Below, piece after piece: positions 7,933 through 31,639 of a DNA stretch of 62,733 bases. A model generated the notes under the pieces. That model saw only the letters and a program-made list of their open reading frames with translations. It had not been told where the DNA came from and made no database searches. The position numbers were made by a program, and so were the translations under genes. Origin of the DNA: an uncultured Mycoplasmatota bacterium (GTDB taxonomy: Bacteria; Bacillota_I; Bacilli_A; RF39; UBA660); NCBI GenBank assembly GCA_900549325.1, contig UROI01000003.1, positions 1-62,733 of the forward strand. The letters run 5' to 3'. Position 1 is the stretch's first letter. Every line of letters starts with the position of its first letter.

Positions 7933-7933
7933 C

Positions 7934-9994
7934 TTATCTCTCCTTTATTATGTTTTTACTACAATAGTATGTTACTAAGAAATATCCTCCATAGATTACT
8001 ACTAGAAATACGGCGGTTAAAATTATTGATGATAATAATGATGATGTTCCTATTGTTTTTAAGATATAATTAGCAAATTTTATTCCAAATATGGAGTGAA
8101 TTATGGCAAGTAATAATGGAAATAAGAAGAATACTGCTATCTGATTAAATAAGGCTTTGTTTATCATCTTCTCATCGGTTCCTATTTTTCTTAACATATT
8201 AAATCTTTCTTTATTATCAGTACTTTCAGATAATTCTTTTAAGGCTAAGATGGCTGCACTTGATATTAAGAAAATTATTCCTAGATATAGTCCTACAAAT
8301 GTTACCATTGCTCCTAGTCCTATAGATGATGCATAGATATCTATTTTGGTATTATATGTTAGTAAGGTATCTTTGTTAAAATGATTATTCATTATAGTAT
8401 TAACCGTCTCTTCGATATCTTCTTTTTCTTCTTTGGTATCAGCTTGATAGTTGGCTGCTAAGATATTTTTATACGGATGAATACCTTCTAAGGCATTATC
8501 TGGTAATATTATTACTCCTGTATTAGTAGAACTTCCACTTAGTTCGATAAAACCATCTTGACATTCTTGATATTTTGGATAGTAGTTTTTACTATTTATA
8601 GTTAGTTTGGCATTATTTTTTAAAGCTATGTTTCGAATATCCGCCATCATCTTATAATTGGCTATAATTACATATTCATTATCTTTCAGAGTTAATTCTT
8701 TTTTGTTATATAGTTTTGCTAGACGATTGTAGTCACTTAATTTTATTAGTGTTTCTTTATCTTGATATGCTAGGAATGGATAATCTTTTTCTATTTGTTC
8801 TATTTGGTCTCCAAAAGAGTCTTTTAGGGTTATTTCTTCTACTCTATATGTATTTATATCTACTACATCTTTTAGATACTTATATACATCTAATCTTTGT
8901 AAGGTATCTTTGGCAGTGGTGTTATAGTCCTCTATTATGTCTTTGGAGAAACTTTCCTCTTCTTCATCTGATAATTGTTGTAATTTTGAGAACTGAATAT
9001 CAACGGGTGCTAAATCTTTTAGATTACCTGATAGGGAGTTCTTTATGGATAATGCTGATGAAAAGATACATATAGTAAAGAATAGCGTTAGGCATATAAT
9101 TGTCATTGAAAAGACTGTGGTATTTATTTTACTACTTATTTGACGAACGGTAAAACTATTTAGTCCTTTGTAGTAGTATTTTTTTAGATGCATTACTATC
9201 TTTAGGATTAGACCTGATAGTGACCAAAATATTAGAAATGTTGATACGCATCCTAAAGCTATAGGCAACAATATTCCTCTTATGGTATTCATTAGTGGTG
9301 AAGTACCAAATCCATCTGTTACTAGATAGTAAGCATATGATAGTGCTATGACAGCAATTATGAATACTATAGTGCAAATGATAGGATTTTTTAATTTTAC
9401 TTTTTCGGATTTTTTATTACCATGTAATAGGTCTATTAGTTTACATTTGTTTACAATTATGGTGTTAAATATCATTACTATTAGATACATTATGCTAAAG
9501 TATAATAAGGCTTTTAGGGCCGCTGAAGATGAAAATGTAAACTGAAATTTTGTTAAGTCAGCTTCAAACATATTGGCTACTAAGATACTCATTAGTTGTG
9601 ATAAAACTGTTCCTAGGGCTAGGCCTACTCCTAAAGAGATAACCCCTATTATAAGAGTTTCAAAGAAAAGGATTAGAGATATTTTTCTTTTGGGCATTCC
9701 TAGGGTTAAGTAGATTCCAAATTCTTTGTTTCTTCTTTTTATGAGAAAACGACTGGCATAGATTATTAGAAATCCTAGAATAAATGAGACAAAGACACTT
9801 ACTCCTCCTAGAATAGTGGTCATTAGTTCTATTGCTTCATACTTTGACGATGAGACATTTAGCATTACTGTTTGACTATCTATGGCATTGAAGACATAGA
9901 AAATGGCTACTCCTAGTACTAGGGTAAAGAAATAGATGGCATAATCTTTGATACTTTTGGTTATGTTTTTTAGTGACAATTTAAAGAGCATCAT
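7934..9994 (-). CDS. ABC transporter permease, FtsX-fold, BceB type (10 TM with large extracellular loop)
   Basis: 686 aa. The stretch at about aa 330-560 carries no TM segments and reads as a large loop between two FtsX-like halves. Start overlaps the ATPase gene stop by 14 nt. Sits in an RR-HK-ATPase-permease module. Confidence 0.85.
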   Translation of the reverse strand: MMLFKLSLKNITKSIKDYAIYFFTLVLGVAIFYVFNAIDSQTVMLNVSSSKYEAIELMTTILGGVSVFVSFILGFLIIYASRFLIKRRNKEFGIYLTLGMPKRKISLILFFETLIIGVISLGVGLALGTVLSQLMSILVANMFEADLTKFQFTFSSSAALKALLYFSIMYLIVMIFNTIIVNKCKLIDLLHGNKKSEKVKLKNPIICTIVFIIAVIALSYAYYLVTDGFGTSPLMNTIRGILLPIALGCVSTFLIFWSLSGLILKIVMHLKKYYYKGLNSFTVRQISSKINTTVFSMTIICLTLFFTICIFSSALSIKNSLSGNLKDLAPVDIQFSKLQQLSDEEEESFSKDIIEDYNTTAKDTLQRLDVYKYLKDVVDINTYRVEEITLKDSFGDQIEQIEKDYPFLAYQDKETLIKLSDYNRLAKLYNKKELTLKDNEYVIIANYKMMADIRNIALKNNAKLTINSKNYYPKYQECQDGFIELSGSSTNTGVIILPDNALEGIHPYKNILAANYQADTKEEKEDIEETVNTIMNNHFNKDTLLTYNTKIDIYASSIGLGAMVTFVGLYLGIIFLISSAAILALKELSESTDNKERFNMLRKIGTDEKMINKALFNQIAVFFLFPLLLAIIHSIFGIKFANYILKTIGTSSLLSSIILTAVFLVVIYGGYFLVTYYCSKNIIKER

Positions 9995-10748
9995 TTATGT
10001 CTCCTCCTAGTAAGGTTACGACATCTATTATTTTATCAAAGAATTCTTTTCTGGTATCATTTCCTTTACGAATTTCGTTATATATTTTACCATCTTTTAT
10101 GAAGATTATTCTAGTAGCGTAACTTGCGGCATAAGCGTCATGGGTTACCATTAAAATAGTGGCTCCTAAGGTATTATTTAAGTATGTTAGTTTTTCTAGA
10201 AGCATTTTTGATGACTTGGAATCTAGGGCTCCGGTTGGTTCGTCTGCGAGTACTAAGCATGGATTTGTTATTATGGCACGAGTTGCTGCTACTCTTTGTT
10301 TTTGTCCTCCACTCATTTGGTAAGGATATTTTTTTAGTACTGATTCGATATCTAGTTCTCTTGCTACTTTCTTTATTCTTTTATCTATTTCTTTGGGACT
10401 TACATTTTGAATTGATAAGGCTAGTGCTATATTTTCATAGGCTGTTAAGGTATCTAATAAATTGAAGTCTTGAAAGATGAAACCTAAGTCTTCTCTTCTA
10501 AACTTGTTTAAATCATTTCCTTTTAGTTTTGTTATGTCAGTTCCTCCTACAAAAATATGTCCGGCGGTTACTTTATCAATTGTAGATATACAGTTTAGTA
10601 ATGTTGTTTTACCTGAACCTGATGAACCCATGATAGCGACAAATTCTCCTTTTTCTACTTCAAATGATATGTTATCTATGGCTTTGGTTAAACTTGATTT
10701 ACTTCCGTAGTATTTTTCAATATTTTCTATTTTTAGTATATTTTCCAT
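9981..10748 (-). CDS. ABC transporter ATP-binding protein, BceA type
   Basis: Walker A GSSGSGKTT, signature MSGGQKQRVA, Walker B LVLADEPTGALD, H-loop VTHD. Confidence 0.9.
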   Translation of the reverse strand: MENILKIENIEKYYGSKSSLTKAIDNISFEVEKGEFVAIMGSSGSGKTTLLNCISTIDKVTAGHIFVGGTDITKLKGNDLNKFRREDLGFIFQDFNLLDTLTAYENIALALSIQNVSPKEIDKRIKKVARELDIESVLKKYPYQMSGGQKQRVAATRAIITNPCLVLADEPTGALDSKSSKMLLEKLTYLNNTLGATILMVTHDAYAASYATRIIFIKDGKIYNEIRKGNDTRKEFFDKIIDVVTLLGGDINDAL

Positions 10749-10809
10749 ATTATTTTCCTTCCTTTCGTAATTAATAATACTAGATAACGGGATATTTGTC
10801 GTAAGTTTA

Positions 10810-10826
10810 ATATTACAGTATATTAC
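10810..10826 (-). promoter_or_regulatory. Candidate response-regulator site: direct repeat GTAATAT x2 (minus-strand reading) spaced 10 bp, upstream of the bceA-like gene
   Basis: Plus strand shows ATATTAC at 10810-10816 and 10820-10826. Located between the HK stop (10839) and the ATPase start (10748). OmpR-family regulators bind tandem repeats one helical turn apart. Confidence 0.3.
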
Positions 10827-10838
10827 TTTTTTGTAAGG

Positions 10839-11858
10839 TTAGTCTTCTGGGTGATAAAGTTTATTTTTGCCAAAAGTTATTTTGACGATTGTATATTCTT
10901 TTTCCTCAGATTCTATTTCTATTTTATGTCCTAGTTTGGTACATAATTTTTTTGCTATGTATAGGCCCATGCCTGTTGATTTGATTTTATCTCTGCCATT
11001 AGTACCAGTAAAGGATTTCTTGAAAACATTAGGGATATCACTTTTTGGTATGCCAATACCGTTATCTTTGATGGATAGGACTATTTGATTGTTGTCTTCT
11101 TGTGTTTTTATTTGGATATAGGAGTTTGGAATATCTTTTTTGTATTTGATACTGTTATTGATAATTTGATTTAAAATGAATTCTAACCATTTGGTGTCGG
11201 TATAGACTTCGGTATTTTTTATATCGACGATTAGGTCAATTTTATTTTCTAAGAGGTCATCTTTATTTTTAAGGGCTACGGAGGAGATTATTTTTTCTAG
11301 TTTTACTTTTTTGAAGATAAAGTCTTCACTAGTATAGTTACTTCTTACATAATAGAGGATTTGGTCAATGTAGTTATCTAGTCTTCTTATTTCTTCGATA
11401 TATTCTTTTGGTACTTGGTTTTTATGATTATGAGTCATAAGGATTAGACTTGATATTGGTATTTTTACTTCATGTATCCACATCTCGATATAGTCTTTGA
11501 AGTCTTTGGTGCTATTTATGTAACTACTGACATTTTCAATCATTGATTTATTGATGTCATATAAGGTGTTATATATTAGTTCTTCTTCATAAGTAGTTGG
11601 TTTGGGTAAGGTTTCTAAGACTAGGTATTTTTTATCTAGATTTTTGGTATTGGTTATGATGGTGGTATAGAAGGTTCTTTTTTGGAAATATGATATTAGG
11701 ATGGTTATGATTAGTGTTAGTAGTAGTAATACTATGGTTACTATTATTAGCTCCTTTGGTACTTTGAAGGCTATATCTAATAGGGTTATTAGAATTATTG
11801 ATATGATAGTTATAATGATTATGGTTATTTTATCTTTTAGATAGTTTGTTAATTTCAT
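10839..11858 (-). CDS. Sensor histidine kinase, intramembrane-sensing BceS type
   Basis: 339 aa. Two N-terminal TM helices with a negligible loop. H-box WIHEVKIPIS, N/G boxes NQIINNSIKY, DNGIGI, GMGLYI. Confidence 0.85.
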   Translation of the reverse strand: MKLTNYLKDKITIIIITIISIILITLLDIAFKVPKELIIVTIVLLLLTLIITILISYFQKRTFYTTIITNTKNLDKKYLVLETLPKPTTYEEELIYNTLYDINKSMIENVSSYINSTKDFKDYIEMWIHEVKIPISSLILMTHNHKNQVPKEYIEEIRRLDNYIDQILYYVRSNYTSEDFIFKKVKLEKIISSVALKNKDDLLENKIDLIVDIKNTEVYTDTKWLEFILNQIINNSIKYKKDIPNSYIQIKTQEDNNQIVLSIKDNGIGIPKSDIPNVFKKSFTGTNGRDKIKSTGMGLYIAKKLCTKLGHKIEIESEEKEYTIVKITFGKNKLYHPED

Positions 11859-12517
11859 AATAGTATATATCCTTGTCCTTTTCTTGTTTCTATGGCATTT
11901 GGATAGCCAAAGCCCTCTAGTTTACTTCTTAATCTACTTATATTTACGGTTAGAGCATTATCATTTATGTATTCTTCATTATTCCAAAGAATGGTCATTA
12001 ATTCATCTCGTGATACAATTCTATTTTGGTTATTTAATAGGTGCTGAAAGATTAGCATTTCATTTTTGGTTAGTTCTAATTCTTTATTATTGCCAGATAA
12101 AGTACCTCGTGATGGCGAGACTTCTAAATCTTTATATTTCAGTACTTCAGTACTATTATCTAATCTTTTAAAGATATTTTGTATTCTTAGTAATAGAATG
12201 GTTGGGCTATAGGGCTTGGTTATGTAATCGTCTGCTCCATAAGAGATAGATAATATTTCATCTGTTTCACTTGCTCTTGAGGTTACCATTATTACTGGAA
12301 TGTTTGATTCTTTCCTTATTTCTTTAAGTAACTGCTCACCATTTTGATATGGTATATTTATATCTAAGAGAATTAGGTCTATATTACTTTTTAACACTTC
12401 TTCTTTGGCATTTGAGAAGTCTTTTAGTATTAATGCTTCATAGCCAGCATTTACTAGTAGTTCATATAATTCTTTAGATATTATGGTATCATCTTCAATT
12501 ATCATTATCTTTTTCAT
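11855..12517 (-). CDS. OmpR-family response regulator, BceR type
   Basis: Receiver domain (IIEDD, DLILLDINIP, K near position 100) plus winged-helix C-terminus (LTKNEMLIFQHL...RLRSKLE...IETRKGQGY). 4-nt overlap with the HK gene. Confidence 0.9.
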   Translation of the reverse strand: MKKIMIIEDDTIISKELYELLVNAGYEALILKDFSNAKEEVLKSNIDLILLDINIPYQNGEQLLKEIRKESNIPVIMVTSRASETDEILSISYGADDYITKPYSPTILLLRIQNIFKRLDNSTEVLKYKDLEVSPSRGTLSGNNKELELTKNEMLIFQHLLNNQNRIVSRDELMTILWNNEEYINDNALTVNISRLRSKLEGFGYPNAIETRKGQGYILL

Positions 12518-12715: not shown

Positions 12716-14050
12716 GTGATACATTTGAAAAAGTATGAACTTTTAACTAGTGACGATAATATATTTAACACAATTAACGATGACTGGTTAGGAAGAAACA
12801 GTAAGATAATTAATCTTATGAAATTATTAAATAATGTTAATGAAAACATTATAATATCAATTGATGGTGAATGGGGAACTGGTAAAACCTTTTTTATAAA
12901 ACAATTAATTTATATCTGCAATAATTACGATAAGATTGATAACATTAAAAATCATAAGGATTATGCTAAAGTGGAGGAGTTTTCAAAAAAGCATGTTGTA
13001 GTTTATTATAATGCTTGGGAAAACGATAATCATGATAATCCTTTAGAATCGCTAATTTATAATATTCTAAATGAATATCCTAAATATAAAAACCATATTG
13101 AAAATCCAGAAGAATTGTTTCAGGCGGTAAAGCCAATACTAAAAAATATTATTGAAAAAGGTAGTTTGGGATATATAACTAAAGACTGCTTTGAAAACTT
13201 AAAATCATTTGAAGATTTAGCTGATAGTATAGTTACAATCGAAGAAAAACAATCATCATTAAATAAGTTATTTAACAAAATAATTAAATCAGATCAAAGA
13301 GTATTATTAGTGGTTGATGAACTAGATAGATGCCGTCCAGATTATGCAGTAAAATCACTTGAAACATTAAAACATTTCTATAATAATTCTAAATTAAGCA
13401 TTATAGTTGTAACTAACAATAAACAATTGAGTCATACAATAAAAAAATATTATGGTAATGATTTTGATGGGTATAGTTATTTAGATAAAATCTATGATAG
13501 CATTATTACGCTTGGAATTGATAATTTAGATAATTATGTTAAAAAACATTGTAAGATTACACAGGCTACTAATTTACCAGAAAATATATCTTTTGAATTA
13601 TTTAAGTATTTAAATTTTTCATACAGAGAATGTAATAAATATATGTCAATGTACAGGATTGTTGAGCCATATACAAAAGTTAGAGACTCTTTTAATATGA
13701 ATAAGTTTTTATTTGAGGCAGACATTTTGTTACCAATGGCTTTAGCATTAAAAATTAAAAATATAAATAACTATAATAGTTTTGTTACTGGTATTGGCGA
13801 TGAAATAATAAAGTCATTTCTAGCATTTCTAAAAAATGATAATGATGAACTTGATTATATTAGATGGCTATCTGAACTTTTATCACCAAACGAAAATGAA
13901 ACTTTAGAAGAAACTTTTATTAGGAAATATAGATGTGTTTTTTCTAAGAGGACTAGCTATGATAATTTTCCATATCTTGAGGCCATTTCTATGCTAGGAA
14001 ATTCAATTAATTTTAATAATGATAATAGTCAATCAATAGGGATGGAATAA
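12716..14050 (+). CDS. KAP-family P-loop NTPase (soluble, no TM insert)
   Basis: IIISIDGEWGTGKTFF (Walker A), VVVYYNAWENDNHDNPLESLIY, LLVVDELDRCRPDYAVKSLETLKHF (Walker B plus KAP-typical DRC). The start may be TTG 12725 rather than GTG 12716. Confidence 0.8.
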   Translation: MIHLKKYELLTSDDNIFNTINDDWLGRNSKIINLMKLLNNVNENIIISIDGEWGTGKTFFIKQLIYICNNYDKIDNIKNHKDYAKVEEFSKKHVVVYYNAWENDNHDNPLESLIYNILNEYPKYKNHIENPEELFQAVKPILKNIIEKGSLGYITKDCFENLKSFEDLADSIVTIEEKQSSLNKLFNKIIKSDQRVLLVVDELDRCRPDYAVKSLETLKHFYNNSKLSIIVVTNNKQLSHTIKKYYGNDFDGYSYLDKIYDSIITLGIDNLDNYVKKHCKITQATNLPENISFELFKYLNFSYRECNKYMSMYRIVEPYTKVRDSFNMNKFLFEADILLPMALALKIKNINNYNSFVTGIGDEIIKSFLAFLKNDNDELDYIRWLSELLSPNENETLEETFIRKYRCVFSKRTSYDNFPYLEAISMLGNSINFNNDNSQSIGME

Positions 14051-14052
14051 TT

Positions 14053-15450
14053 ATGATTTATAAAGGTATATTTTATTTTGATAAAAAAAATCATCCTGGA
14101 GAATGTGAAATAGATGATAATAATCATATATACTTGACAATACATGAAAGCAACATAAACGGTTATAAGAAAAAAATAACTGGAATTGCCGGTAATGAGA
14201 CCTTAACATTATATAACTGTTGCTTAATTAGTAATGGAATAGGTTATTATAAGTATAGAATAAGTTATATTGTAAAAAATGGTATTAATATAAAGTATAA
14301 GAACGTAGATTTTAATAAACATATACAAAGTTTTAGATTTACTTTTAATCGTTTAGATGAATGGCTAGGTATTAAAACAATAATAAAAAGCAAAAATGAA
14401 ATTAAATTTAATATACCAAATGATATTCTATTATATAGTGATGATAAATTAAAAATTTATATAAAATATTTTGAAGAAAAATGTACTTTAACTGATACAT
14501 CTATTAGTAATCTTAGCATAGTACCATATATTTGTACAAAATCAACTTGTGTTATGAGCATAGAAAAGATTACAATGTATATTCAAATGATTACTAGGTT
14601 TTTTGCTTTACTAATTGGATATAGCGAGCAGGTAAGAACAATTAAATTTCATAAGATGTATAATTGGCAAAATATTATGGGAGATATCGAGGATGAAGTT
14701 GTAATAAATACAGACTTTAGCAATTGTTATTATAACAAAATTGGTTATTCTAAATTTAATTTAAGAACTTATTATAATGATATAAGTGAAAATATAATGA
14801 TGCTATTTAGTAAGTGGTATAATATTTATTTTAATAAGAGATATAAAGAGGCTATATTTTTTTACTATAGCCCATATAAGTCTCAAACTATAGAAGATGA
14901 TTTTTTAACAATAATGAAATGTCTTGAAAAATTTAGTTGTGCAACAGATAATATTAAAGAGAAAAAGAAAAAAAATAAGAACTTAAGAAATATTTTATGT
15001 GATTTTTACGATAAAAATAAAATAACTTTGGAAAAAACTATGAAAGATAGAGGTTTTAAAAAGGAATATATAAAAAATATAGAAGACATACATGAAGATA
15101 TAGCAAATGCTATTGTATATCGCTATAATACAAGAGTAAAATTATCAAGTAGAATAAAAGCACTTGATAAAAATAATATAATAACCAAGAGATTTAATTA
15201 CAAGCACTGTAAAAAGAAAGATGTTAATTGTAATGTTTATGATTATTTATCTAATACACGAAATTATTACACACATCTTGATACAAATGATTGTATTTTA
15301 AGAGATGAATATTTGCCAGGATACATTAGAAGGCTAGAAAAAATTTTTATAAATAATCTATTATTATTAATAATAAATGATGAAGACTATGTTAAAAAAG
15401 TCTTAGATAAAGATGAATATTTATCAATATATGATAATCGTGATATTTAA
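14053..15450 (+). CDS. HEPN-domain protein, ApeA-like (N-terminal ApeA_NTD-like region plus C-terminal Rx4H motif)
   Basis: 465 aa. ATG lies 2 nt after the KAP stop. C-terminal YLSNTRNYYTHLD contains the canonical HEPN R-N-x3-H. Length and N-terminus (GIFYFDKKNHPGECEID..IYLTI) recall ApeA. The CDS is solid; the family call is inference. Confidence 0.55.
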   Translation: MIYKGIFYFDKKNHPGECEIDDNNHIYLTIHESNINGYKKKITGIAGNETLTLYNCCLISNGIGYYKYRISYIVKNGINIKYKNVDFNKHIQSFRFTFNRLDEWLGIKTIIKSKNEIKFNIPNDILLYSDDKLKIYIKYFEEKCTLTDTSISNLSIVPYICTKSTCVMSIEKITMYIQMITRFFALLIGYSEQVRTIKFHKMYNWQNIMGDIEDEVVINTDFSNCYYNKIGYSKFNLRTYYNDISENIMMLFSKWYNIYFNKRYKEAIFFYYSPYKSQTIEDDFLTIMKCLEKFSCATDNIKEKKKKNKNLRNILCDFYDKNKITLEKTMKDRGFKKEYIKNIEDIHEDIANAIVYRYNTRVKLSSRIKALDKNNIITKRFNYKHCKKKDVNCNVYDYLSNTRNYYTHLDTNDCILRDEYLPGYIRRLEKIFINNLLLLIINDEDYVKKVLDKDEYLSIYDNRDI

Positions 15451-15519
15451 TTTAAACAATAATATTTATATCTATCTATTTTTATTGATAACAATATTGT
15501 TATTATGTTTTATTTTAAT

Positions 15520-15561
15520 AAAAGACTTAGCACATCTTAATGATGTTGTTAAGTCTTTTTT
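15520..15561. terminator. Bidirectional terminator between the convergent HEPN gene and the 141-aa gene
   Basis: aaaagactta...taagtctttt 10-bp outer stem plus inner acatc/gatgt stem. A-run on the 5' side and T-run on the 3' side. Confidence 0.7.
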
Positions 15562-15574
15562 AATTGTTTATCTG

Positions 15575-16000
15575 TTATTTATACTTATCTTCTTCCCATT
15601 CATCAGTAATAAGTTCATCATCATCTCGTTCTTCTGCTTCAACGAAATCCGCTGGACTCATTCTTTCTTCTTTAGCTATTCTTTTATCCTCTTCTGATAA
15701 TCCCCATAATTCTGCTTCTTTATCAAATTCTTCATCTTTATAATTTCTTTTTACTATTTTATTTGATTTAACATTTGTCTTCTTAAAAGATGACTCTGGA
15801 AAGTTAATATGTATTTTCTTTTTACTAAAAATATTATATATTGTTTGAAATAACCAAATTATAAAATAACAAAATAATTTAGTTATTTCAACCATCAAGA
15901 TAAAAATATAATAAAACATAATAGCCCCTATTTTAAAGATATACCAGACAAATATAAGAGGAAAAAATAATATATATAATAATGTTTTAATAGTAACCAC
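15575..16000 (-). CDS. Small membrane protein with strongly acidic C-terminal tail
   Basis: 141 aa. Two N-terminal TM helices, a K-rich linker, and C-terminus WGLSEEDKRIAKEERMSPADFVEAEERDDDELITDEWEEDKYK. The GTG start has poor SD spacing, so the start is uncertain. Confidence 0.4.
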   Translation of the reverse strand: MVTIKTLLYILFFPLIFVWYIFKIGAIMFYYIFILMVEITKLFCYFIIWLFQTIYNIFSKKKIHINFPESSFKKTNVKSNKIVKRNYKDEEFDKEAELWGLSEEDKRIAKEERMSPADFVEAEERDDDELITDEWEEDKYK

Positions 16001-16055
16001 CTCAATCTAATTATATCAATAATTTAATATAAAGTCATTAGTTATGTAATTTACT

Positions 16056-17309
16056 TTAAAGTACCACACATTCATTTTTTTCTTGTAATAATATACATTT
16101 ATTACTATTTTGAAATTCAATAGGAATAAATTCTCCGCAATATTTATAATCTTCTTTTTTACTGCTTCTTTCAAACAGATAAACTTTAGTATGTTTATTA
16201 TATCCTAATATAATATCTCTGCATATTTGATTTGGTTTATGAACAAATTCAAGATACTTATACTTTTCTTCACTTTCATTTTGCAAAAAATATATTATTT
16301 TTTTATTATTCAACCATTTATCATCATATTCTCCTTCGGTTGTTTGTCCTTTTAAAATTAAAATATCATCCTTCTTATTATAATACATCCCCATCATTTG
16401 ATTAAAATTATTTGCTATTGCACATATAGTCATTGTGTTAACTAGTGAACCAATTTTTAAATCATTTATATTAGTATATTTTATATTAGTTTTATCATAC
16501 TCATTCATTATGTCAACAGCTGTCTTCAATCCATTATTGTGAATCAATTTATATTGTTCTTTTTTGATATCAAGAATACTTTGATTATTTAAAAACTTAA
16601 CAATGTCCCCATCATTAGGTAAAGATTTAATTTTTTGAATAAAAAGATTTATTGATTGACCATATTCATTATAAAACCTATAATTTAATTGCTTTTCATT
16701 ATCCAAGATCATTTCTTTTAATGATTTCTTCTTATTATTATCTGATATTTTTTTTGTTTCAGTTATATTATTACATATCATTGTGTCTGAATAATTGATG
16801 TTTTTAACTATATCTATGAAATTACCTACTAACTCTTTTTTTATTGATATTCCTTTGCCCCTGGTTCCATCGCTTTTTACCTTTCTTATATCAAGATATT
16901 CATTTCCATTTTCATATTTGATAAAATTTAATTCTATAAACACATTTGCCGAACTTCTTATTTTACCAATATGTTGAACCTGAGGATTTTTTTGTGGTTT
17001 CATTTCCTGTAATAATCTTTGACTATAGGAACTATTTTTTGTCATTCTTATATAATCTATTTTTTTAATAAATAACGTTGTTTTTTCTTCTCCTACACCT
17101 GTTAAACTTGGTATTCCCATTTTCAACTTGTTATAATCACTAAGTGATAATTTTTTTAAATCGTTCGTTGTTTTAATATTATTGTCAAATAAATATTCTT
17201 CAAGTAAATCATATTTCTTTTCGTTTAGTATACTACTAATATTTATTTCTTTTTCATCCAGTTCAACGTTATTAGTTCCCATTTGATTAATTAGACTCTT
17301 CAGTTCCAT
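16056..17309 (-). CDS. Predicted DNA-binding protein: HhH-like motif, PC4/YdbC-like ssDNA-binding segment, C-terminal DUF3427/PUA-like segment
   Basis: 417 aa, overlapping the GHKL gene stop by 23 nt. GIPSLTGVGEEKTTLFIKKI (HhH-like, aa 65-84). FIELNFIKYENGNEYLDIRKVKSDGTRGKGISIKKELVGNFIDIVKNI matches the PC4 pattern (..vdIREy....g.kGIsL..eqw..l). The C-terminus GMYYNKKDDILILKG...KVYLFERSSKKEDYKYCGEF resembles DUF3427-type modules. Confidence 0.55.
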   Translation of the reverse strand: MELKSLINQMGTNNVELDEKEINISSILNEKKYDLLEEYLFDNNIKTTNDLKKLSLSDYNKLKMGIPSLTGVGEEKTTLFIKKIDYIRMTKNSSYSQRLLQEMKPQKNPQVQHIGKIRSSANVFIELNFIKYENGNEYLDIRKVKSDGTRGKGISIKKELVGNFIDIVKNINYSDTMICNNITETKKISDNNKKKSLKEMILDNEKQLNYRFYNEYGQSINLFIQKIKSLPNDGDIVKFLNNQSILDIKKEQYKLIHNNGLKTAVDIMNEYDKTNIKYTNINDLKIGSLVNTMTICAIANNFNQMMGMYYNKKDDILILKGQTTEGEYDDKWLNNKKIIYFLQNESEEKYKYLEFVHKPNQICRDIILGYNKHTKVYLFERSSKKEDYKYCGEFIPIEFQNSNKCILLQEKNECVVL

Positions 17310-19527
17310 TGTCTACCACACTTTCGGTAATATACACTTGTAAGTTATCATTTATCATTCCGCTTATTAATATAGCGACTCTTTTTAGTTCTTCATTCTT
17401 TGCAACATCACTTAGTCTGTTTTCATCATCTTTAGAATCCTCTTTTATATGTAAAATTAAACTATAATATGCCATTTGCTTTATATATTCATCATTCAAG
17501 GCTTTTATTGACAAATCATCGTCTGTTCCTTTGGTAATATTTTCTTGAAGTTTTTTTAATGGTTTATTCTCCATGTTGATATATATTTCAATTGACTCTG
17601 TAGAATCCTTCAAAACACAAGGTAGTTCTTCATCATCACTAAAGAATTCTTCAAACTCCGTGCTATTCTTAAATACTGGTACTGTTGAAATTTTAGGTGG
17701 TTGCTTTGTTTGCTCATCTTTTGATTGATCGCTCTTTTCTTTATCTACAACTTTTATCATAATTGATGATGATAAATTTTCATCATCATACCCCTTAATA
17801 TACAACTTAAAGAAAATGTCATCTCCAACTTTTACATCGGGAGATAATTTGAAGTTTATAATTCCATGACCGTTTTTATAAAATTTAAATCCATCGAAAA
17901 TTAAAGCATTTTCATTTTCAAAAATGAAGCCAAGATTGTCTTCCATACTATACATCTCATGATCTGCATTAGAAGTATAGTTTAAAGCAAGGTCTTTATT
18001 TATTGGTAGTTCAAAATTCTCTTTATTTGAAATATTTAAAAATGTTGGAAATGCAAATAATTCTGGTAATTTTTGAGGATTGTTAGATTTTTGTTGTTTT
18101 GTACTAGGAATATCTTTGGAAACCTTTCCTATTCCACCTGTATTTAGAAAAACTCTCAATTTGTTTTCTATTTTTTTATTTAGTTCTTCACTCATATTTT
18201 CTGAACTTGCACTCAGCATTTGTTCTTTAAAATATTTATTCAAATCTATTAACTCTTGATCCTCCTGCAATAAGTCAACAACTTTCCTTCTTAATGCATC
18301 TGTATAATCATTATCTTGAAACTTTGCTCTATCAGAAGTAAACAAACGTGCTTTAATCCTGTCATCCATATTGTCACAATCAACATTAACAATTAAATGA
18401 TTTAATAAATATGGTTTATTAATTTTTTCAAAAAAATTAGAATTTTCATTTCCTTCTACCTGACCATTAATTGTATATAATACTGGTGTAGTTTTTTCGT
18501 TATAATTTTTATATGAATCTTTATCAGTAATAATCCAATAATTAATAGTAATAGTTCCGCCGAAAATATAATCTGCTATTATTCTATTATTATACTTTAC
18601 ATGTTCATTATTATTTAATCTTGAATTGCATCCTAGTGCAATTATTACATTATTGTGATTTTCAAAATTTGTTTTGTCAACAGAAATTCTGTTCTCAGTA
18701 ATTCTTATTGGTAAAATTGGATTGAATAATTTTTTATTAACAAAATGAAATATACTTTTATCACCTGGAGCTTTTGCACTACTTCTACCATATTGATTAA
18801 TGTTCATTTCTATATGTCTTACTAATGTTCCTGGTAAAAACTCATTATTTTTATCAATTACAGATATCGGACAACCAGTACTTTTTAAAACTAAGTATTT
18901 ATGTATTGGCGTTTTATAATCTAAATCATCAAATTCTTTTGTAATAGTAAATGAAATTCTGTTTGAATTATCTTTTTCCGGTATTGGTTTTGATATTATT
19001 AATGTATGTTTAGAAAATATATTAGCAGTTGAGCCTCCCTGTCCAAATGTTCCTGCAAGGTAAAACTTTCTTAATTTATTCCCCCCCTGTAAACTAAGAA
19101 TTGTTTTTCCAAATTCTTCACTACTTAGTCCTATACCATAATCTCTTATCTCTATTGTTGGTCTCCATTTTTTATTTGACTCTAAAACATTTAATTCTAC
19201 TAAAGACTTAAGGTTTTTATCAATTTCCTTAATATCATACTTAGATAGATCACCTTCTTTAATACCAAAATATTTTTCGGAAGACATTCGTGGATTTTTT
19301 AGTTGATTATCAGGGTTTAAATAATAATATTTTTCAATAACTGCATCTATTGCGTTAGTTAATCTCTCTATAATACCATTTTCACCACGCTCAAGCATTT
19401 GAAAAGTTGAATGATTTGACTCATTGTTGCCAATTGGAATCCATTCAGTTTCATATTTACTTTCTATTAATTTTATTAGTTCATCTATATCCTTAACTGT
19501 ATTTGCATTGAATACCTCTCTTAACAT
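17287..19527 (-). CDS. GHKL (Bergerat-fold, HATPase_c) ATPase, MORC/paraMORC-like, with a long uncharacterised C-terminal region
   Basis: 746 aa. N-box ERLTNAIDAV, G1 box IEIRDYGIGL, G2 box AGTFGQGGS. SD AGAGGTGA lies 5 nt upstream of the ATG. Confidence 0.75.
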   Translation of the reverse strand: MLREVFNANTVKDIDELIKLIESKYETEWIPIGNNESNHSTFQMLERGENGIIERLTNAIDAVIEKYYYLNPDNQLKNPRMSSEKYFGIKEGDLSKYDIKEIDKNLKSLVELNVLESNKKWRPTIEIRDYGIGLSSEEFGKTILSLQGGNKLRKFYLAGTFGQGGSTANIFSKHTLIISKPIPEKDNSNRISFTITKEFDDLDYKTPIHKYLVLKSTGCPISVIDKNNEFLPGTLVRHIEMNINQYGRSSAKAPGDKSIFHFVNKKLFNPILPIRITENRISVDKTNFENHNNVIIALGCNSRLNNNEHVKYNNRIIADYIFGGTITINYWIITDKDSYKNYNEKTTPVLYTINGQVEGNENSNFFEKINKPYLLNHLIVNVDCDNMDDRIKARLFTSDRAKFQDNDYTDALRRKVVDLLQEDQELIDLNKYFKEQMLSASSENMSEELNKKIENKLRVFLNTGGIGKVSKDIPSTKQQKSNNPQKLPELFAFPTFLNISNKENFELPINKDLALNYTSNADHEMYSMEDNLGFIFENENALIFDGFKFYKNGHGIINFKLSPDVKVGDDIFFKLYIKGYDDENLSSSIMIKVVDKEKSDQSKDEQTKQPPKISTVPVFKNSTEFEEFFSDDEELPCVLKDSTESIEIYINMENKPLKKLQENITKGTDDDLSIKALNDEYIKQMAYYSLILHIKEDSKDDENRLSDVAKNEELKRVAILISGMINDNLQVYITESVVDNGTEESN

Positions 19528-19543
19528 ACTATCACCTCTTTAC

Positions 19544-19759
19544 TTAAAACTTAAAACTATTGTTTTTTCCTTTTAACTTAAATTTTGTTTCTGCTAAGGC
19601 TAATTCTTCTTTTAAAGTTTTAAAAACTTTTTTTACGTCTTCTTCAGTGTAAGAATAAGCCCGCGTATTGGATAAATTACCTATAAGTTGAATGTTTTTT
19701 ATTGCGTTATTAACTCTTTTTTCAGCCAATTCTTTAAACTTTATTTCCTTTTCTTCCAT
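19544..19759 (-). CDS. Small helical protein, first gene of the GHKL operon
   Basis: 71 aa (MEEKEIKFKELAEKRVNNAIKNIQLIGNLSNTRAYSYTEEDVKKVF...). SD GAGAGG. 16-nt gap to the GHKL gene. Confidence 0.5.
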   Translation of the reverse strand: MEEKEIKFKELAEKRVNNAIKNIQLIGNLSNTRAYSYTEEDVKKVFKTLKEELALAETKFKLKGKNNSFKF

Positions 19760-19786
19760 ATAACATTTGCCTCTCTTTCAACATAT

Positions 19787-19814
19787 ATTATACATATTTT
19801 TAAAATGTTGTCAA
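19787..19814 (-). promoter_or_regulatory. Near-consensus sigma-A promoter for the 71-aa/GHKL operon
   Basis: Minus strand reads TTGACA (19814-19809), 16-nt spacer, TATAAT (19792-19787). Located between the dcm stop and the 71-aa start. Confidence 0.6.
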
Positions 19815-19860
19815 TATATTTTTGCAATATTTTAAAAATATTACAAAAATGAAGCATATT

Positions 19861-21030
19861 TTATTGTGCTTCATTAAACAGTTTTTCAGCCATTGTTTTA
19901 ATTACATCAACATTCACAGCATTTCCAAATTGTTTGTATGCTTGTTGATCATTCTTATTTGGAATAAATGTGTCAGGAAAACTCTGAAGTCTAGCTGCTT
20001 CTCTAACTGTTAGTCTTCTTTTATACTTACCTATTATTGGAATTTGTACCATTGCTACTAACGCAGGAAAGCATGTTGGTTTTTTAACCCTAATACCTGA
20101 CGGTCTAAATTGTATTATCCCATCCCATAACGATTTTATGCTATTACCAGCTTGCCATTCTAATTTTCTATGTGTTGGAGCAAATTCTTTTAAATAATTA
20201 TATTTTTCCATCCATCTATCTATAAACTCTTTATTATTGTTATATAAATTAATATTCTTATTTATGAAATCCTCTTTCCATTTTGGCAATTTTTCATCTT
20301 TAAAATATCCATTAAAATATACTGCCCATATTGGGAAACCAATAACTGTTTCTTTAATTCCTTTATAAAATTCATCCCACGCTGTTAAAACCATTTTTTC
20401 ATAATCTGAAATATAGTATTTATTTGACACTTTCTTTGTTTCTAGCACGGTTGAAATATCATTTTCTTCTTTTGACATCAATTCTGGCAGTTTTATATTT
20501 AAATCTTTATCAGCATTTTCTGGATCATATATACCCAAAATTACAACTCTTTCCCTTAATTGCGGGATACCTAATTGATGTGGGCTAATAATAATAGGTT
20601 CTTTTGTCAAACGATAGCCAATTTCTTTCAAATGTGAATAAATTGTATTCCATGTCTTTTTATTGTCATGTGATACTAAGTTTCTTACATTTTCTAAAAC
20701 TATATACTTTGTCTTATGATATTTTAAAATTCTCTCTATTTCAAAAAATAGCGTTCCTTTAGTTTCATCGTTGAATCCTAACTGTTTTCCAGCTTTAGAA
20801 AATGTTTGGCATGGGAAGCCAGCGCATAGAACGTCATGTTTGGGTATATCTTTCTCATCTATATCCCTAATATTGCAATCAGAATTAATACCATAGTTTT
20901 CATAATATGTTTCTATTGCATACTTATCAATTTCAGATGCAAATACACAATTTCCACCTAATTGTTCCATTGCCTGATGAAAGCCACCTATTCCAGCAAA
21001 TAAATCTATAAACTTAAAGTCCTTTTTCAT
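19861..21030 (-). CDS. dcm: DNA (cytosine-5)-methyltransferase
   Basis: Motif I FIDLFAGIGGF, motif IV GFPCQTFS, motif VI LENVRNL, motif VIII QLRERV, motif X QFGNAV. Confidence 0.92.
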   Translation of the reverse strand: MKKDFKFIDLFAGIGGFHQAMEQLGGNCVFASEIDKYAIETYYENYGINSDCNIRDIDEKDIPKHDVLCAGFPCQTFSKAGKQLGFNDETKGTLFFEIERILKYHKTKYIVLENVRNLVSHDNKKTWNTIYSHLKEIGYRLTKEPIIISPHQLGIPQLRERVVILGIYDPENADKDLNIKLPELMSKEENDISTVLETKKVSNKYYISDYEKMVLTAWDEFYKGIKETVIGFPIWAVYFNGYFKDEKLPKWKEDFINKNINLYNNNKEFIDRWMEKYNYLKEFAPTHRKLEWQAGNSIKSLWDGIIQFRPSGIRVKKPTCFPALVAMVQIPIIGKYKRRLTVREAARLQSFPDTFIPNKNDQQAYKQFGNAVNVDVIKTMAEKLFNEAQ

Positions 21031-21172
21031 TTTTACATCACCACTATATTAATTATACTACTTTTTTTTACATAAAGCTAGCATTTTTTACAAATTTAAG
21101 CGAAAATTTTGCATTTGGTTATAGATTTATTTAGAGCAATGTTATATAATTATTATAGGAGGTTAATAATAT

Positions 21173-22444
21173 ATGGCCAATTTAAAAAGTGAACAGTTGA
21201 GAAGCGACCTAGGTCTTGAAATAAACTATGATCAACCACTTTCAACTTCTGAAATGATGAAAAATATTATCAATATTCTTGGTAAAAGTAATTGCTATAT
21301 AGAAAAAGTTAATAATAAAAAGTTGCTTTTTTACAAACATAGTAATACAATTGAAGTACTATTACTTGCATCAATTACTTACATGGGAGGGAATGGTCAA
21401 CATCCGATTTATAAAAAAAGAATGCAATTAAAGAAATGGTATAAAGATATTGTGAATTATTATAGTAATAAATCAAATTATAATGTTAGATTCATTGGTG
21501 TATATCATTATCAAAATAATATTATTTTTGCAGAATTTAACAAAGATTCCTATGTTAAGAAAAAAATGAATTCTTCTGCCGCCCATGTTTATACCAATGA
21601 TTTGTATCAGGCAATGAAGGATGGTTCTTTTAAAAGAAAAGACAGAAATAAAAATGAAATTACTACAATCAAATACATTAAATTTAAAGACTATTTAGAT
21701 AATAACATGTCAAAATACAGTAATGATTTATTTAACATATTTACTTTATTTAATGAAGGCGATTTCTTTGGAAAATGGATAAGTGCAAAAGTTGCAATAC
21801 CAGAAATGCACAAAGAAAACTGGAATAAATGGAAAGAAACAGAGTGGCCAGGATGGTACCTAGAATTTAAAATGAATTCCTTCATCAAAGAGAAATGTCT
21901 TGAAAATAAAATCTTATATGTTGGTAGTTCTCATAAGCGTGCAGGAGAATTAGACTTTGACTTGTGGTTTGGTGAAGATAATTTTTATGGTGATTTAAAA
22001 GCAAGTGATATTGATAAAAAGGAAGCACCTGGAAATGATCAAAATAGTTTTATTGAATGTATCAACAAGTATAATAAATTTTGGTATATCATTTACGAAC
22101 ATAATACTATAAAAGATAATGAAACCAATAATTATGATGCAACTAGATTTAGAGCAAACTATATTAAAGATAATAATGAATGGCCACTTGGAAAACAATT
22201 TGATGAATTAAGTTATTATAAAAGAATGAAAAATTCTATTAAATTCATTAAGATGTATATAATTGAACTTAATAGAATTAATTTTAGAAATGTATTAAGT
22301 GACTTTAATCAGGGAAAGCAGCCCAGTGGAGATGCAAGGAATCCTAAATTTAAAATATCAAAGAAAAATATAGATAACTTTATTGTTTACGAGCAAGATT
22401 TTATACAGATTGAAGAGAAAAAATTGAATCATTGTCAGGAATAG
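21173..22444 (+). CDS. Candidate type II restriction endonuclease (PD-(D/E)XK-like), divergent from dcm
   Basis: 423 aa. GELDFDLWFGEDNFYGDLKAS gives D-x12-D-L-K. Divergent arrangement with a C5 MTase across a 142-bp shared promoter region. No family was recognised by eye. Confidence 0.5.
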   Translation: MANLKSEQLRSDLGLEINYDQPLSTSEMMKNIINILGKSNCYIEKVNNKKLLFYKHSNTIEVLLLASITYMGGNGQHPIYKKRMQLKKWYKDIVNYYSNKSNYNVRFIGVYHYQNNIIFAEFNKDSYVKKKMNSSAAHVYTNDLYQAMKDGSFKRKDRNKNEITTIKYIKFKDYLDNNMSKYSNDLFNIFTLFNEGDFFGKWISAKVAIPEMHKENWNKWKETEWPGWYLEFKMNSFIKEKCLENKILYVGSSHKRAGELDFDLWFGEDNFYGDLKASDIDKKEAPGNDQNSFIECINKYNKFWYIIYEHNTIKDNETNNYDATRFRANYIKDNNEWPLGKQFDELSYYKRMKNSIKFIKMYIIELNRINFRNVLSDFNQGKQPSGDARNPKFKISKKNIDNFIVYEQDFIQIEEKKLNHCQE

Positions 22445-22700: not shown

Positions 22701-23669
22701 GTGGTAGTAGGCGTTAATATATCGAGTTTTAGACTTAAAAAAAAATATACAAAAAAAGAAGAATTTATTCCGTTTTATTCTGACTTTTCAAAAAATAAAG
22801 ATGATTGTATTTATTCATGTGATAATATCATAGATGTTATAGAAGAATTCTATAAATCTAAAATTTTACCAGAACAGTTAGATTATCATAAAAAATATTT
22901 TGGAACAAAAAAAGATTCCTTTAAGATTATTGAAAAAAATGATAGAATATATGTCTCTTTCACAGTTATTTGTGGTGCATATGGAATCAAATCGGAAATA
23001 ACTGATATTGATACTAATGAAATTTTGTTTAAAAGAAAAATAAACAATGCCGATGTAAAAGATTTTAGAATTATGTTTGCTTTTGCTAGAAATCAAGATA
23101 CATTTGAAGTTAATAAAGGAGTTGTTCTATTTGAAGTAATTGGGCAATATGGAGTAAAAACTTTAATTACTAATAAACTTAGAGAGTTTTTATCAAATAG
23201 TTTTCATGTAATTCCATTTTTTTATACAGTTTCAACAAGAGAGGCTTTTGAGAAATTGGTTGAAAAAGGAAGTTTTAAAAAAATTAACTTAATAAAAAAT
23301 GAAGTTAGTCCTAATTTTTCTAATATGTTGGGTATTAATTGTGGAAAAGAAGTTAGAACTGTTGCAGTAGCATCAATTAGAGAAAAGAAAAATTTTGTTG
23401 ATAAACTATTAAACTTTGCAACATCCGACAAGGAAGTTTACGAAATAGATGATGAATACGATGATATTTCGATTACAATAGATATGGGTGGAAGAACAAA
23501 AACAACAAGTATTAAAAACTTTAGTTCATTGTATATTGTTGAAGAACTTCCTAAGGATGTTTTAGATATAGATGGAGAAATGATTGTACAAAAAATCGAT
23601 GATGCAATGATGCAATATGCCAATGATTATTTAGATAATATTGTGGAAGGTGATGAGATTGTTAATTAA
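22701..23669 (+). CDS. Hypothetical cytoplasmic protein (no motif recognised)
   Basis: 322 aa. GTG start with SD AGGAGG 7 nt upstream. A9 and A7 tracts at codons 13-19. The 3' end overlaps the next gene. Confidence 0.6.
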   Translation: MVVGVNISSFRLKKKYTKKEEFIPFYSDFSKNKDDCIYSCDNIIDVIEEFYKSKILPEQLDYHKKYFGTKKDSFKIIEKNDRIYVSFTVICGAYGIKSEITDIDTNEILFKRKINNADVKDFRIMFAFARNQDTFEVNKGVVLFEVIGQYGVKTLITNKLREFLSNSFHVIPFFYTVSTREAFEKLVEKGSFKKINLIKNEVSPNFSNMLGINCGKEVRTVAVASIREKKNFVDKLLNFATSDKEVYEIDDEYDDISITIDMGGRTKTTSIKNFSSLYIVEELPKDVLDIDGEMIVQKIDDAMMQYANDYLDNIVEGDEIVN

Positions 23670-24267
23670 ATTATTAATTTTAATAATTGCAATTTATTTG
23701 TTTATATACTGTTTTTTAACAAAGCAAGACTACATAAATGTATCGCAAGTTATAAGAGAACAGTTACAATCTATACTTAAGAAGAAATCTGAAAGAAGAA
23801 AACGTGACATATATTCTTTTGTAAACATATATATACTTCCGCTACTATTATCATTTTTTTCTGCTTTAGAAAATATAATAAGTAACAATTTCTATGATAA
23901 TATTATTGTAATTTTAGCTATACTTGTATCTGTATTTTTAACTTTAATCAGCATTTTAACATCTAAAAGTTATAAAACAAAAACAGATAAGCAAAAAATA
24001 ATAGTTAACCTAACTTTTAATAATGTCTATTTTTTAACTGTAATATCTACGATATTACTAATACTTTGTTTTTTAAAGAGTAGTATTAGTAATATAGAAT
24101 TAAACCTTTTCAATAATATACCTATAATATGCAAGATATTTAATCTTAGTAATTATAAAGTTTTGTTTAACACCATAGTAATATATTTAATTATACAAAT
24201 AATCATACATTTATTAATTGTGTTAAAAAGGATACAACAAATATTTTTTATAACGTTTGATGATTAA
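23653..24267 (+). CDS. Hypothetical polytopic membrane protein (about 5 TM)
   Basis: ORF track starts at TTG 23641. ATG 23653 with SD GGAAGGTG is preferred. It overlaps the upstream gene by 17 nt. Hydrophobic segments include LLIKLLILIIAIYLFIYCFL, IYILPLLLSFFSAL, IIVILAILVSVFLTLISIL, VYFLTVISTILLILCFL and IVIYLIIQIIIHLLIVL. Confidence 0.6.
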   Translation: MRLLIKLLILIIAIYLFIYCFLTKQDYINVSQVIREQLQSILKKKSERRKRDIYSFVNIYILPLLLSFFSALENIISNNFYDNIIVILAILVSVFLTLISILTSKSYKTKTDKQKIIVNLTFNNVYFLTVISTILLILCFLKSSISNIELNLFNNIPIICKIFNLSNYKVLFNTIVIYLIIQIIIHLLIVLKRIQQIFFITFDD

Positions 24268-31489: not shown

Positions 31490-31518
31490 TTGATTTTTTA
31501 TGATAGTTATAGTATCAT
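31490..31518 (+). promoter_or_regulatory. Candidate promoter TTGATT-17-TATCAT for the orphan RNA
   Basis: -35 at 31490-31495, 17-nt spacer, -10 at 31513-31518. An alternative upstream -10 TATAAT lies at 31469-31474. Confidence 0.35.
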
Positions 31519-31525
31519 TGTATTA

Positions 31526-31639
31526 TCGGAGAGAAATCTCGTCAGGTCGATAGCTCAATGTCGATTTTATTAAATTAAGTGTATGTTAAGTACACCGCTT
31601 GAGCTGGGGAGAGACTACTAGATAGTCTCTTTTCTTTTT
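31526..31639 (+). ncRNA. Candidate stand-alone structured small RNA (about 115 nt) ending in an intrinsic terminator
   Basis: GAGA-GAAA-UCUC tetraloop hairpin (31529-31540). Long-range pair AGCUCAA (31552-31558) with UUGAGCU (31599-31605) encloses hairpin GUGUA-ugUUAAG-UACAC. Terminator at 31610-31639. No plus-strand ORF follows. Convergent with the antitoxin gene. Confidence 0.35.
31610..31639 (+). terminator. Intrinsic terminator (plus strand)
   Basis: agagacta / tagtctct 8-bp stem, 5-nt loop, then TTTCTTTTT. Confidence 0.7.

Follow-up and report, generated by a model that had tools for sequence, protein, structure and literature searches.

Genes of the cassette

We analysed a 62,733-nucleotide stretch of DNA ("the window") from an uncultured Mycoplasmatota bacterium (contig UROI01000003.1 of assembly GCA_900549325.1; G+C content about 25%), in which an operon encoding a GHKL-type ATPase adjoins dcm, the gene of a C5 cytosine DNA methyltransferase, and a candidate restriction nuclease. 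An earlier reading made from the letters alone (the sequence-only reading) had proposed a separately promoted defence module of four minus-strand genes, encoding a 71-aa protein, a 746-aa ATPase, a 417-aa DNA-binding protein and possibly a 141-aa membrane protein. All four open reading frames (ORFs) are present on that strand, and the 417-aa gene does overlap the 746-aa gene by 23 nt (17287-17309). The genes and features of the cassette are:

19544-19759, minus strand: small protein of 71 aa, encoded by the operon's first gene (ORF call)
17287-19527, minus strand: 746-aa predicted GHKL+S5 ATPase with a conserved C-terminal extension, best fitting the paraMORC type (ORF call, motifs, fold)
16056-17309, minus strand: 417-aa predicted DNA reader without a nuclease (ORF call, AlphaFold model)
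15575-16000, minus strand: 141-aa ORF (ORF call)
19861-21030, minus strand: dcm, C5 cytosine DNA methyltransferase, 389 aa (PF00145, 5e-84)
21173-22444, plus strand: MTaX1-domain protein, 423 aa, candidate restriction nuclease (Pfam MTaX1, 1.6e-19, residues 64-175; PADLOC REase_II PDLC03409, 5.6e-78)
16800-16988, minus strand: putative PC4-like single-stranded DNA (ssDNA)-binding beta domain, residues ~108-170 of the 417-aa protein (Foldseek, sub-threshold Pfam)
16074-16442, minus strand: putative SRA-like modified-cytosine reader domain, residues ~290-412 of the 417-aa protein (Foldseek)
19843-19875, minus strand: terminator-like hairpin and U-run over the dcm stop codon (RNA fold)
19822-19846, no strand: 25-bp palindrome, candidate operator abutting the -35 element (palindrome search)
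19787-19814, minus strand: sigma-70-type consensus promoter TTGACA-16-TATAAT (12/12 match)

None of the four operon-region proteins received a family assignment from Pfam, NCBIfam, PHROGs, PADLOC or single-sequence and profile searches of the PDB. The sequence-only reading had seen no nuclease, protease, TIR or SIR2 effector among them, and searches for such domains in Pfam, NCBIfam, PHROGs, PADLOC and PDB sequences bear this out. At E ≤ 0.1, the four proteins matched none of the PADLOC 2.0 models (Mza, MADS, BREX, DISARM, Druantia and others); PADLOC matches at the cassette were restricted to dcm and the restriction endonuclease (REase), both to generic restriction-modification (R-M) models. 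These two genes may form a Type II R-M pair: the methyltransferase is clear, and its partner, a putative nuclease, carries MTaX1 and matches the REase_II model. The MTaX1 nuclease had no match in the annotated collections.

The 141-aa ORF has an N-terminal hydrophobic region, an acidic tail and a promoter-like site of its own (16038-16010). It was found again in near-identical strains (a 40-member 90% cluster) and is missing from every more distant cassette examined; we therefore place it outside the module, of which it had been suggested as a possible member.

A GHKL ATPase with the Hsp90 and MORC fold

We found 181 homologues of the 746-aa protein in the protein collection, some of the distant ones carrying PF13589. 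A species scan (a pattern search of one genome per species across 185,579 species genomes, with loci confirmed by tblastn) gave 231 confirmed loci, spread over Bacteroidota, Proteobacteria, Firmicutes, Acidobacteria, Myxococcota, Chloroflexi and archaea. Six distant plasmid matches in annotated collections were each labelled hypothetical protein, and the family is without a model in both Pfam and PADLOC.

The Bergerat motifs quoted in the sequence-only reading match invariant columns of an 82-sequence alignment, in which E54, R55, N58 and D61 (motif I, ExxxNxxD), D129, G131 and G133 (motif II, DxGxG), G159, G162, G164 and G165 (the G-rich motif III) and T234 (the motif IV threonine) are all invariant, as the GHKL superfamily demands. 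G355, Q356 and R400 are also invariant, and Q163 occurs in at least 90% of sequences. Candidates for the basic residue of the S5 domain, placed from the alignment alone, are R400, K205 (at least 90%) and the NGQ triad at 354-356 (N354 at least 90%).

The AlphaFold model of the protein (pLDDT 86.5) was matched by Foldseek to Hsp90, HtpG and TRAP1 (E 1e-11 to 1e-8), SMCHD1 (E 2e-8), Topo VI-B (E 2e-8) and MORC2, MORC3 and MORC4 (E 5e-8 to 3e-7). The alignments run over about 450 columns, taking in the N-terminal and middle domains of Hsp90 and the ATPase modules of MORC, SMCHD1 and Topo VI-B, with TMt up to 0.56. Because of these matches to GHKL+S5 structures, we assign residues 1 to ~420 of the model as a GHKL+S5 module. 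Beyond this point the model shows first a long helix and then a disordered linker; a beta-rich domain (497-651) follows, and a helical bundle (655-739) comes last, neither of these two domains having an assignment. The extension (~425-746) can be aligned across the whole family and is confidently modelled, like the conserved C-terminal region of the paraMORC1 family discussed below. A nuclease hidden in this half was considered and rejected, as the alignment contains no invariant Asp, Glu or His past residue 430.

The sequence-only reading had called the protein a MORC-like GHKL ATPase. The likeness holds for the fold; membership of MORC proper does not. MORC proteins are defined by the S5 motif GhXhhpXXRhl in Iyer et al. 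2008 (PMC2292703), and a regular-expression search found this motif in 0/82 members of the family, including the window's protein, which rules out true MORC membership. The family thus shares its ATP-binding motifs with MORC, SMCHD1, Hsp90, MutL and Topo VI-B, and its residues ~1-420, transducer or middle domain included, have the same predicted fold; it differs in lacking the MORC motif, in having no detected MutL-type endonuclease motif and in matching no PDB chain at sequence level.

A predicted modified-cytosine reader

The sequence-only reading had described the 417-aa protein as a PC4-like DNA-binding protein, which agrees with its modelled fold, and had missed what the model (pLDDT 82.4) suggests of its C-terminal part. 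There, Foldseek matched the target-recognition domain of SauUSI (7clg; E 3.2e-5 over 227 columns), the SRA domain of SUVH6 with methylated DNA (6a5n; E 1.8e-3) and the N-domain of AspBHI (4oc8; E 3.5e-3). On this modelled SRA (PUA-like) fold, the C-terminal half is a predicted SRA-like reader of modified cytosine. No Pfam family matches the domain at sequence level. It is preceded by a helical region resembling a coupler, and the protein family has invariant aromatics (Y309, Y328, W332, Y377, Y388 and F399), candidates for an aromatic pocket around a flipped modified base. Profile positions 190-406 recur in remote relatives at the N-terminus of proteins with HNH_2, HNH, NOV_C or MTaX1 domains.

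The N-terminal part is modelled as a helical region with the sequence GVGEEKT, a beta domain (110-170) and a further helical region. The beta domain resembles SP_0782 and EF_3132 (ssDNA-binding, PC4-like) and Pur-alpha, with TMt ~0.6 and E 0.025-0.1. In Pfam, PC4 reaches 13 bits on the 417-aa protein against a cut-off of 25 bits; PF02229 has a precomputed match in one homologue (P0133) and reaches 1e-4, below the curated cut-off, in a remote relative (P0229). We consider the domain PC4-like by its modelled fold, with Pfam support below threshold, and the whole protein, from its model, a probable combination of HhH, PC4-like and SRA-like domains without a nuclease.

The family is narrow, with 58 homologues that are all at least 43% identical, and no protein of the cassette evolves faster than the reader (43-54% identity). 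In the loci of other clades a methyltransferase gene occupies the equivalent position; the idea that the 417-aa protein is a degenerate version of that enzyme was rejected on an hhalign probability of 2%. One relative (L010) has a longer reader, of 510 aa, with a precomputed PF17726 match at its C-terminus.

Conservation of the cassette and its small protein

To describe the window's own clade, we took the loci whose GHKL proteins share at least 51% identity with that of the window. The gene order is constant in every relative with enough flank: MTaX1 protein, dcm, 71-aa protein, GHKL protein, 417-aa protein. The last three are always found together, with dcm, which answers the question, raised by the sequence-only reading, of whether they travel as a set. 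Among the 86 related loci in which we called ORFs and clustered the neighbours, the 417-aa gene lies directly after the GHKL gene in all seven that hold it. The same holds in six further places reached via the 417-aa protein, which have the same gene order with a 173-aa HTH_3 gene in front. The junction between GHKL and reader genes is tight across cassettes, with an overlap of 23-26 nt or a gap of 4 nt. The flanks vary and include Mob_Pre, KAP NTPase, Fic, integrase and PFOR/RecG genes. In L010 an extra ORF of ~597 aa lies between dcm and the 71-aa gene.

The window's dcm is 66-75% identical to those of related cassettes, and in the comparison with one relative (L004) identities are 75% for the methyltransferase, 69% for the small protein, 78% for the GHKL protein and 51% for the reader. 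The four are co-inherited, and dcm identity tracks GHKL identity; the module does not merely stand beside an R-M pair, as the sequence-only reading had it. The nuclease follows another pattern. The window's copy is inverted with respect to dcm and, at 423 aa, longer than those of L004, L005, L087 and L090 (392-396 aa); it is only 34-37% identical to the nucleases of the relatives, which are 60-79% identical among themselves. The HTH_3 controller gene of the relatives is also absent from the window. The pattern suggests that the restriction gene was swapped or rearranged while dcm and the operon stayed together.

The 71-aa protein has no Pfam or PDB assignment. Its profile found a homologue in 42 of 87 sources, immediately 5' of the GHKL gene in all except one (L072), and the invariant residues of the family are F8, R15, N31, Y35, K44 and F69. 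An FKF tail at its C-terminus is conserved. DUF4145 matched six of 24 members below threshold, and a weak PDB match to RacA was seen (E 0.11). A MerR/RacA-like winged helix-turn-helix binding the palindrome was considered and rejected, the profile-profile comparison with MerR N-domains giving a probability of 0.6%.

Regulatory DNA between dcm and the operon

The promoter, described as near-consensus in the sequence-only reading, is a 12/12 match to TTGACA-16-TATAAT (19814-19787) and the sole such match in the 6 kb from 15300 to 21300. Promoter-like sites overall are not enriched there (55 found vs 47.9 expected from shuffles). When the spacers between dcm and the small gene were aligned from nine cassettes, both the -35 and the -10 hexamer were found to be conserved, and a hairpin followed by a T-run lies at the same position, the dcm stop. 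The window's hairpin has a folding energy of -8.6 kcal/mol (z -2.64) and is followed by UUUUU; its equivalent in a related cassette (L005) reaches -11.2 kcal/mol (z -4.98). A consensus terminator scan overlooked the window's hairpin because its loop is 10 nt long.

Abutting the -35 element, the 25-bp palindrome TTGTAATATTTTTAAAATATTGCAA occurs nowhere else in the window, and shuffles predict 0 occurrences. Five of six relatives searched carry such a palindrome once per cassette in the same place, and its arms covary between T:A and C:G across loci. In other clades, CTA[TC]AT-N8-ATGTAG occurs 55-67 nt upstream of the small gene in 21/41 loci, vs 3.7% of control windows. The Bacteroidota palindrome may in part be the Bacteroidota -7 promoter element; only the recurrence in Proteobacteria and other phyla argues for an operator. 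Terminator, palindrome and promoter together probably set the operon apart from dcm as its own transcription unit, in keeping with the separate promotion that had been proposed.

The wider GHKL family

Beyond the window's clade, the family is tied to a different methyltransferase. In 67 of the 86 loci, a ~415-aa N6_N4 methyltransferase gene (PF01555; motifs FxGxG and SPPY seen by eye in one sequence) directly adjoins the GHKL gene and in most cases follows it on the same strand. Some clades add other genes. YhcG or PLD-Mrr_N nucleases occur in some, and 18-19 Bacteroidota loci have a longer arrangement, in which small protein, GHKL protein and N6_N4 methylase are joined by a 268-aa protein resembling a restriction endonuclease (RE) and by a MORC protein. 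The 268-aa protein shows a PD..ExK-like motif by eye and has no Pfam match. The MORC proteins of these loci, a second GHKL protein (c3), carry the defining motif GhXhhpXXRhl in 17/18 cases. One such five-gene locus is that of Leeuwenhoekiella blandensis MED217 (L033, 7829-13901), with a 508-aa true MORC containing GFALVQGNRVI; 17 other Bacteroidota loci are similar.

GHKL ATPases embedded in R-M systems were predicted by comparative genomics in 2008 (Iyer, Abhiman and Aravind; PMC2292703), a purely computational study. In that paper, paraMORC1 co-occurs with MORC and with methylase or RE genes in neighbourhoods without helicases, and Leeuwenhoekiella blandensis is among the species listed. The 18-19 Bacteroidota loci combine MORC, a methylase and an RE-like protein, no helicase was found among the neighbours of their MORC-containing loci, and the further GHKL protein has a conserved C-terminal extension. 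For these reasons the 746-aa family best fits paraMORC1 as described there, although the identification is circumstantial. The window's own clade departs from that neighbourhood, having dcm, the MTaX1 protein and the reader instead.

The comparative data indicate that the GHKL protein works with a DNA methyltransferase, and that the dcm clade has probably acquired, by insertion next to the ATPase, a reader dedicated to modified cytosine.

The surrounding island

The defence-island setting claimed by the sequence-only reading is borne out, with dcm and the REase on one side of the operon and a KAP NTPase and an ApeA-HEPN gene on the other. These last two lie at 12716-15450 on the plus strand: a KAP-family P-loop NTPase (PADLOC PDC-S20, 7e-45), followed by a protein with ApeA-like NTD1 and HEPN domains (PDC-S58). 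With abutting frames (14050, 14053), they look like a candidate two-gene defence pair. Further out, at 24809-27469 on the minus strand, an 886-aa SF1 helicase (AAA_11, AAA_12) with a C-terminal DUF2726/REase-like domain is a probable further defence gene of the same island. The interval between nuclease and helicase holds, at 22701-24267 on the plus strand, a 322-aa protein without a match in any library and an overlapping 208-aa multi-pass membrane ORF.

One edge of the island is marked by a predicted bacitracin-type sensing and efflux module (6841-12517, minus strand: VanZ, FtsX-type permease, ABC ATPase, histidine kinase and OmpR-type response regulator). Elsewhere in the window, an Rfam DUF3800-I RNA (31518-31642, plus strand; 61.6 bits) lies beside an MqsA-HTH/SocA-Panacea antitoxin-like gene (31665-32642, minus strand), and a SAM riboswitch (S-box leader; 56.3 bits) occupies 37895-37982 on the minus strand.

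Relation to known systems

The sequence-only reading had called the module undescribed. This holds for the gene set: an operon with reader, dcm, MTaX1 protein, operator and promoter was not found described in our literature searches. It does not hold for the kind, as the family fits the paraMORC class of the 2008 paper and a GHKL ATPase within an R-M system was already predicted there. With the paraMORC families of that paper (PMC2292703) the window's family shares the link to DNA methylases and nucleases and, in Bacteroidota, the co-occurrence with a true MORC, a methylase and a PD..ExK-like protein; the available text on paraMORC makes no mention of a 71-aa partner, an SRA/PC4 reader or a conserved operator and promoter.

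The reader invites comparison with SauUSI, in which an SRA-fold target-recognition domain is joined by a helical coupler to an ATPase and activates it on binding 5-methylcytosine (5mC) (PMC7913695). The modelled SRA-like domain of the reader is likewise preceded by a coupler-like helical region. However, SauUSI carries its PLD nuclease and SF2 helicase motor on a single polypeptide, whereas the window has a separate reader with HhH and PC4-like domains, a GHKL ATPase, no fused nuclease and dcm in the cassette. Modification-dependent restriction endonucleases similarly fuse SRA, PUA or DUF3427 sensors to HNH or PD-(D/E)xK nucleases (PMC6765204). As in these enzymes, of which AspBHI is an example, remote relatives of the reader have an N-terminal sensor and a C-terminal HNH_2, HNH or NOV_C domain; the window's reader, by contrast, is free of a nuclease and has a methyltransferase as its genetic partner instead of being excluded by one.

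Among experimentally tested defence systems, the nearest that we found is Ambrosia (bioRxiv 10.1101/2025.09.30.679545), whose single cluster unites a regulator and a methyltransferase with a HATPase-type protein and a modification-directed component. Ambrosia is made up of an XRE regulator, a methyltransferase, a HATPase, a REC protein and a Type IV HNH nuclease. Its histidine-kinase-like HATPase, REC/wHTH partner and Type IV HNH nuclease have no counterpart at the window's locus: a Pfam scan of the genes between 12716 and 23669 found no REC or HNH domain, and no sequence relationship between the two systems emerged from Pfam or PADLOC.

Possible functions

Our preferred reading, on which we are evenly divided, is that this is a paraMORC-class cassette for R-M-type defence, with restriction by the linked nuclease under the control of a methylation reader and an ATP-driven clamp. 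The cassette would consist of two transcription units. The first, dcm and the MTaX1-domain nuclease, would write the 5mC self mark and cut DNA; the second, with its own consensus promoter beside the candidate palindromic operator, would supply the 71-aa protein, the GHKL ATPase and the reader. This operon may be autoregulated via the palindrome, and the 71-aa protein may be an adaptor or a regulator. The GHKL+S5 ATPase presumably dimerises on ATP to form a DNA clamp, like Hsp90, MutL, MORC and SMCHD1. Following the logic of SauUSI, where SRA activates the motor, the reader would report the cytosine-modification state to the ATPase, which would clamp or loop the DNA and so license, potentiate or restrain cleavage by the linked nuclease. 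We infer the physical interactions between the proteins, the sensing of self against foreign marks and the fate of the DNA.

Several observations favour this. The cassette is conserved despite differing surroundings, dcm and the GHKL gene are inherited together, and linkage to a methyltransferase extends across the family, with nucleases or a true MORC added in some clades. The ATP-binding motifs are intact on a GHKL+S5 fold; the reader's SRA fold, remote relatives in which such sensors are fused to nucleases, and the SauUSI precedent agree with the proposed role of the reader. The tight coupling of GHKL and reader genes, the conserved terminator, palindrome and promoter, and the prediction of Iyer et al. 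2008 (PMC2292703) point the same way.

Other observations weigh against it. Our literature searches found no experimental work on any member of the GHKL family. It is a paradox that a self-methylating cell should encode a 5mC reader, unless self is recognised or the reader is tightly controlled. The nuclease that the clamp is supposed to control is tied to the operon more loosely than dcm, given its inversion and its identity of only 34-37%. Moreover, 39 of the 67 methyltransferase-linked loci have no recurrent nuclease or other extra partner, 20 of them with long flanks, and ten sampled neighbours (from eight methyltransferase-linked loci and L066) are unrelated, mostly housekeeping genes, such as those for a copper oxidase, carbamoyl-phosphate synthase, topoisomerase IV subunit A and an aminotransferase. 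The ancestral unit of GHKL protein and methyltransferase may on this account need no separate nuclease. In a Bacillales metagenome-assembled genome (L002, 8001-10199) the GHKL gene even stands alone, between the genes of an H+-pyrophosphatase and a peptide deformylase, with no methylase or small protein nearby.

If the nuclease is dispensable, the GHKL protein might provide immunity or silencing without one, clamping or compacting DNA according to its methylation state and so blocking replication or expression, while the adjacent nuclease serves as an independent Type II partner of dcm. The loci without a recurrent partner (20 of them with flanks long enough to have shown one), the C-terminal half without conserved catalytic-type residues and a fold common to the MORC2-DNA and SMCHD1 structures all fit this. 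We still think it unlikely, with nucleases added in other clades and unlinked ones perhaps existing elsewhere. Somewhat less improbable, if only slightly, is a Type IV-like arm, in which the reader detects foreign cytosine modification (5-hydroxymethylcytosine, or 5mC outside the dcm context) and the ATPase acts on that DNA. Such an arm would complement the Type II pair, covering phages that evade it through DNA modification. The structural and remote relatives of the reader are indeed sensors of modification-dependent nucleases (SauUSI, AspBHI, and HNH or NOV_C fusions), and its fast evolution is what one would expect at a host-phage interface. Yet the operon encodes no nuclease and, among the loci examined, the reader family accompanies the dcm-linked GHKL clade alone, and no clade with N6/N4 methylases has it. 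This confinement points to the resident 5mC mark as the ligand.

Recognition of the resident mark could also serve Ambrosia-like self-targeting, with a machine that recognises the cassette's own mark being de-repressed on infection and leading to abortive infection or preferential damage to replicating phage DNA. A perfect-consensus promoter paired with a conserved palindromic candidate operator would suit such control, relatives carry an HTH_3 regulator, and Ambrosia is itself a tested defence whose components are barely expressed before infection (10.1101/2025.09.30.679545). However, the window has no REC domain, no HNH domain and a GHKL protein of a different family; no repressor was found, and the HTH_3 gene is missing. 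We think this reading quite improbable. Least likely by some distance is a housekeeping or epigenetic role, either in repairing 5mC deamination damage in the manner of VSR and MutL or in maintaining or regulating methylation. MutL, which helps VSR in repair, belongs to the GHKL+S5 proteins, Iyer et al. noted that these families might be recruited to repair outside R-M contexts (PMC2292703), and the solo member sits among housekeeping genes. But most of the family is tied to N6/N4 methylases, for which deamination repair would make no sense, and the cassette lies on islands with integrases and defence genes, has variable flanks and encodes no repair nuclease.

Significance

The eukaryotic MORC chromatin ATPases are proposed to descend from the bacterial GHKL ATPases of R-M operons, for which our searches found no experimental test. 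With a writer (dcm), an SRA-like reader and a GHKL motor, the five genes described here make a compact, clonable cassette, which would allow a direct test both of the coupling between a methylation mark and a GHKL clamp and of restriction without a dedicated nuclease. The family would also add a system to defence-annotation tools. A bolder possibility, which we consider doubtful, is that the core of the family (small protein, GHKL protein and methyltransferase), which often stands by itself among housekeeping genes without a nuclease, is a form of non-cutting immunity, in which a methylation-guided, ATP-driven clamp entraps or silences unmarked or mis-marked DNA. If so, the dcm clade with its dedicated 5mC reader would represent a bacterial write-read-clamp axis, analogous to eukaryotic silencing by 5mC, SRA readers and MORC or SMCHD1.

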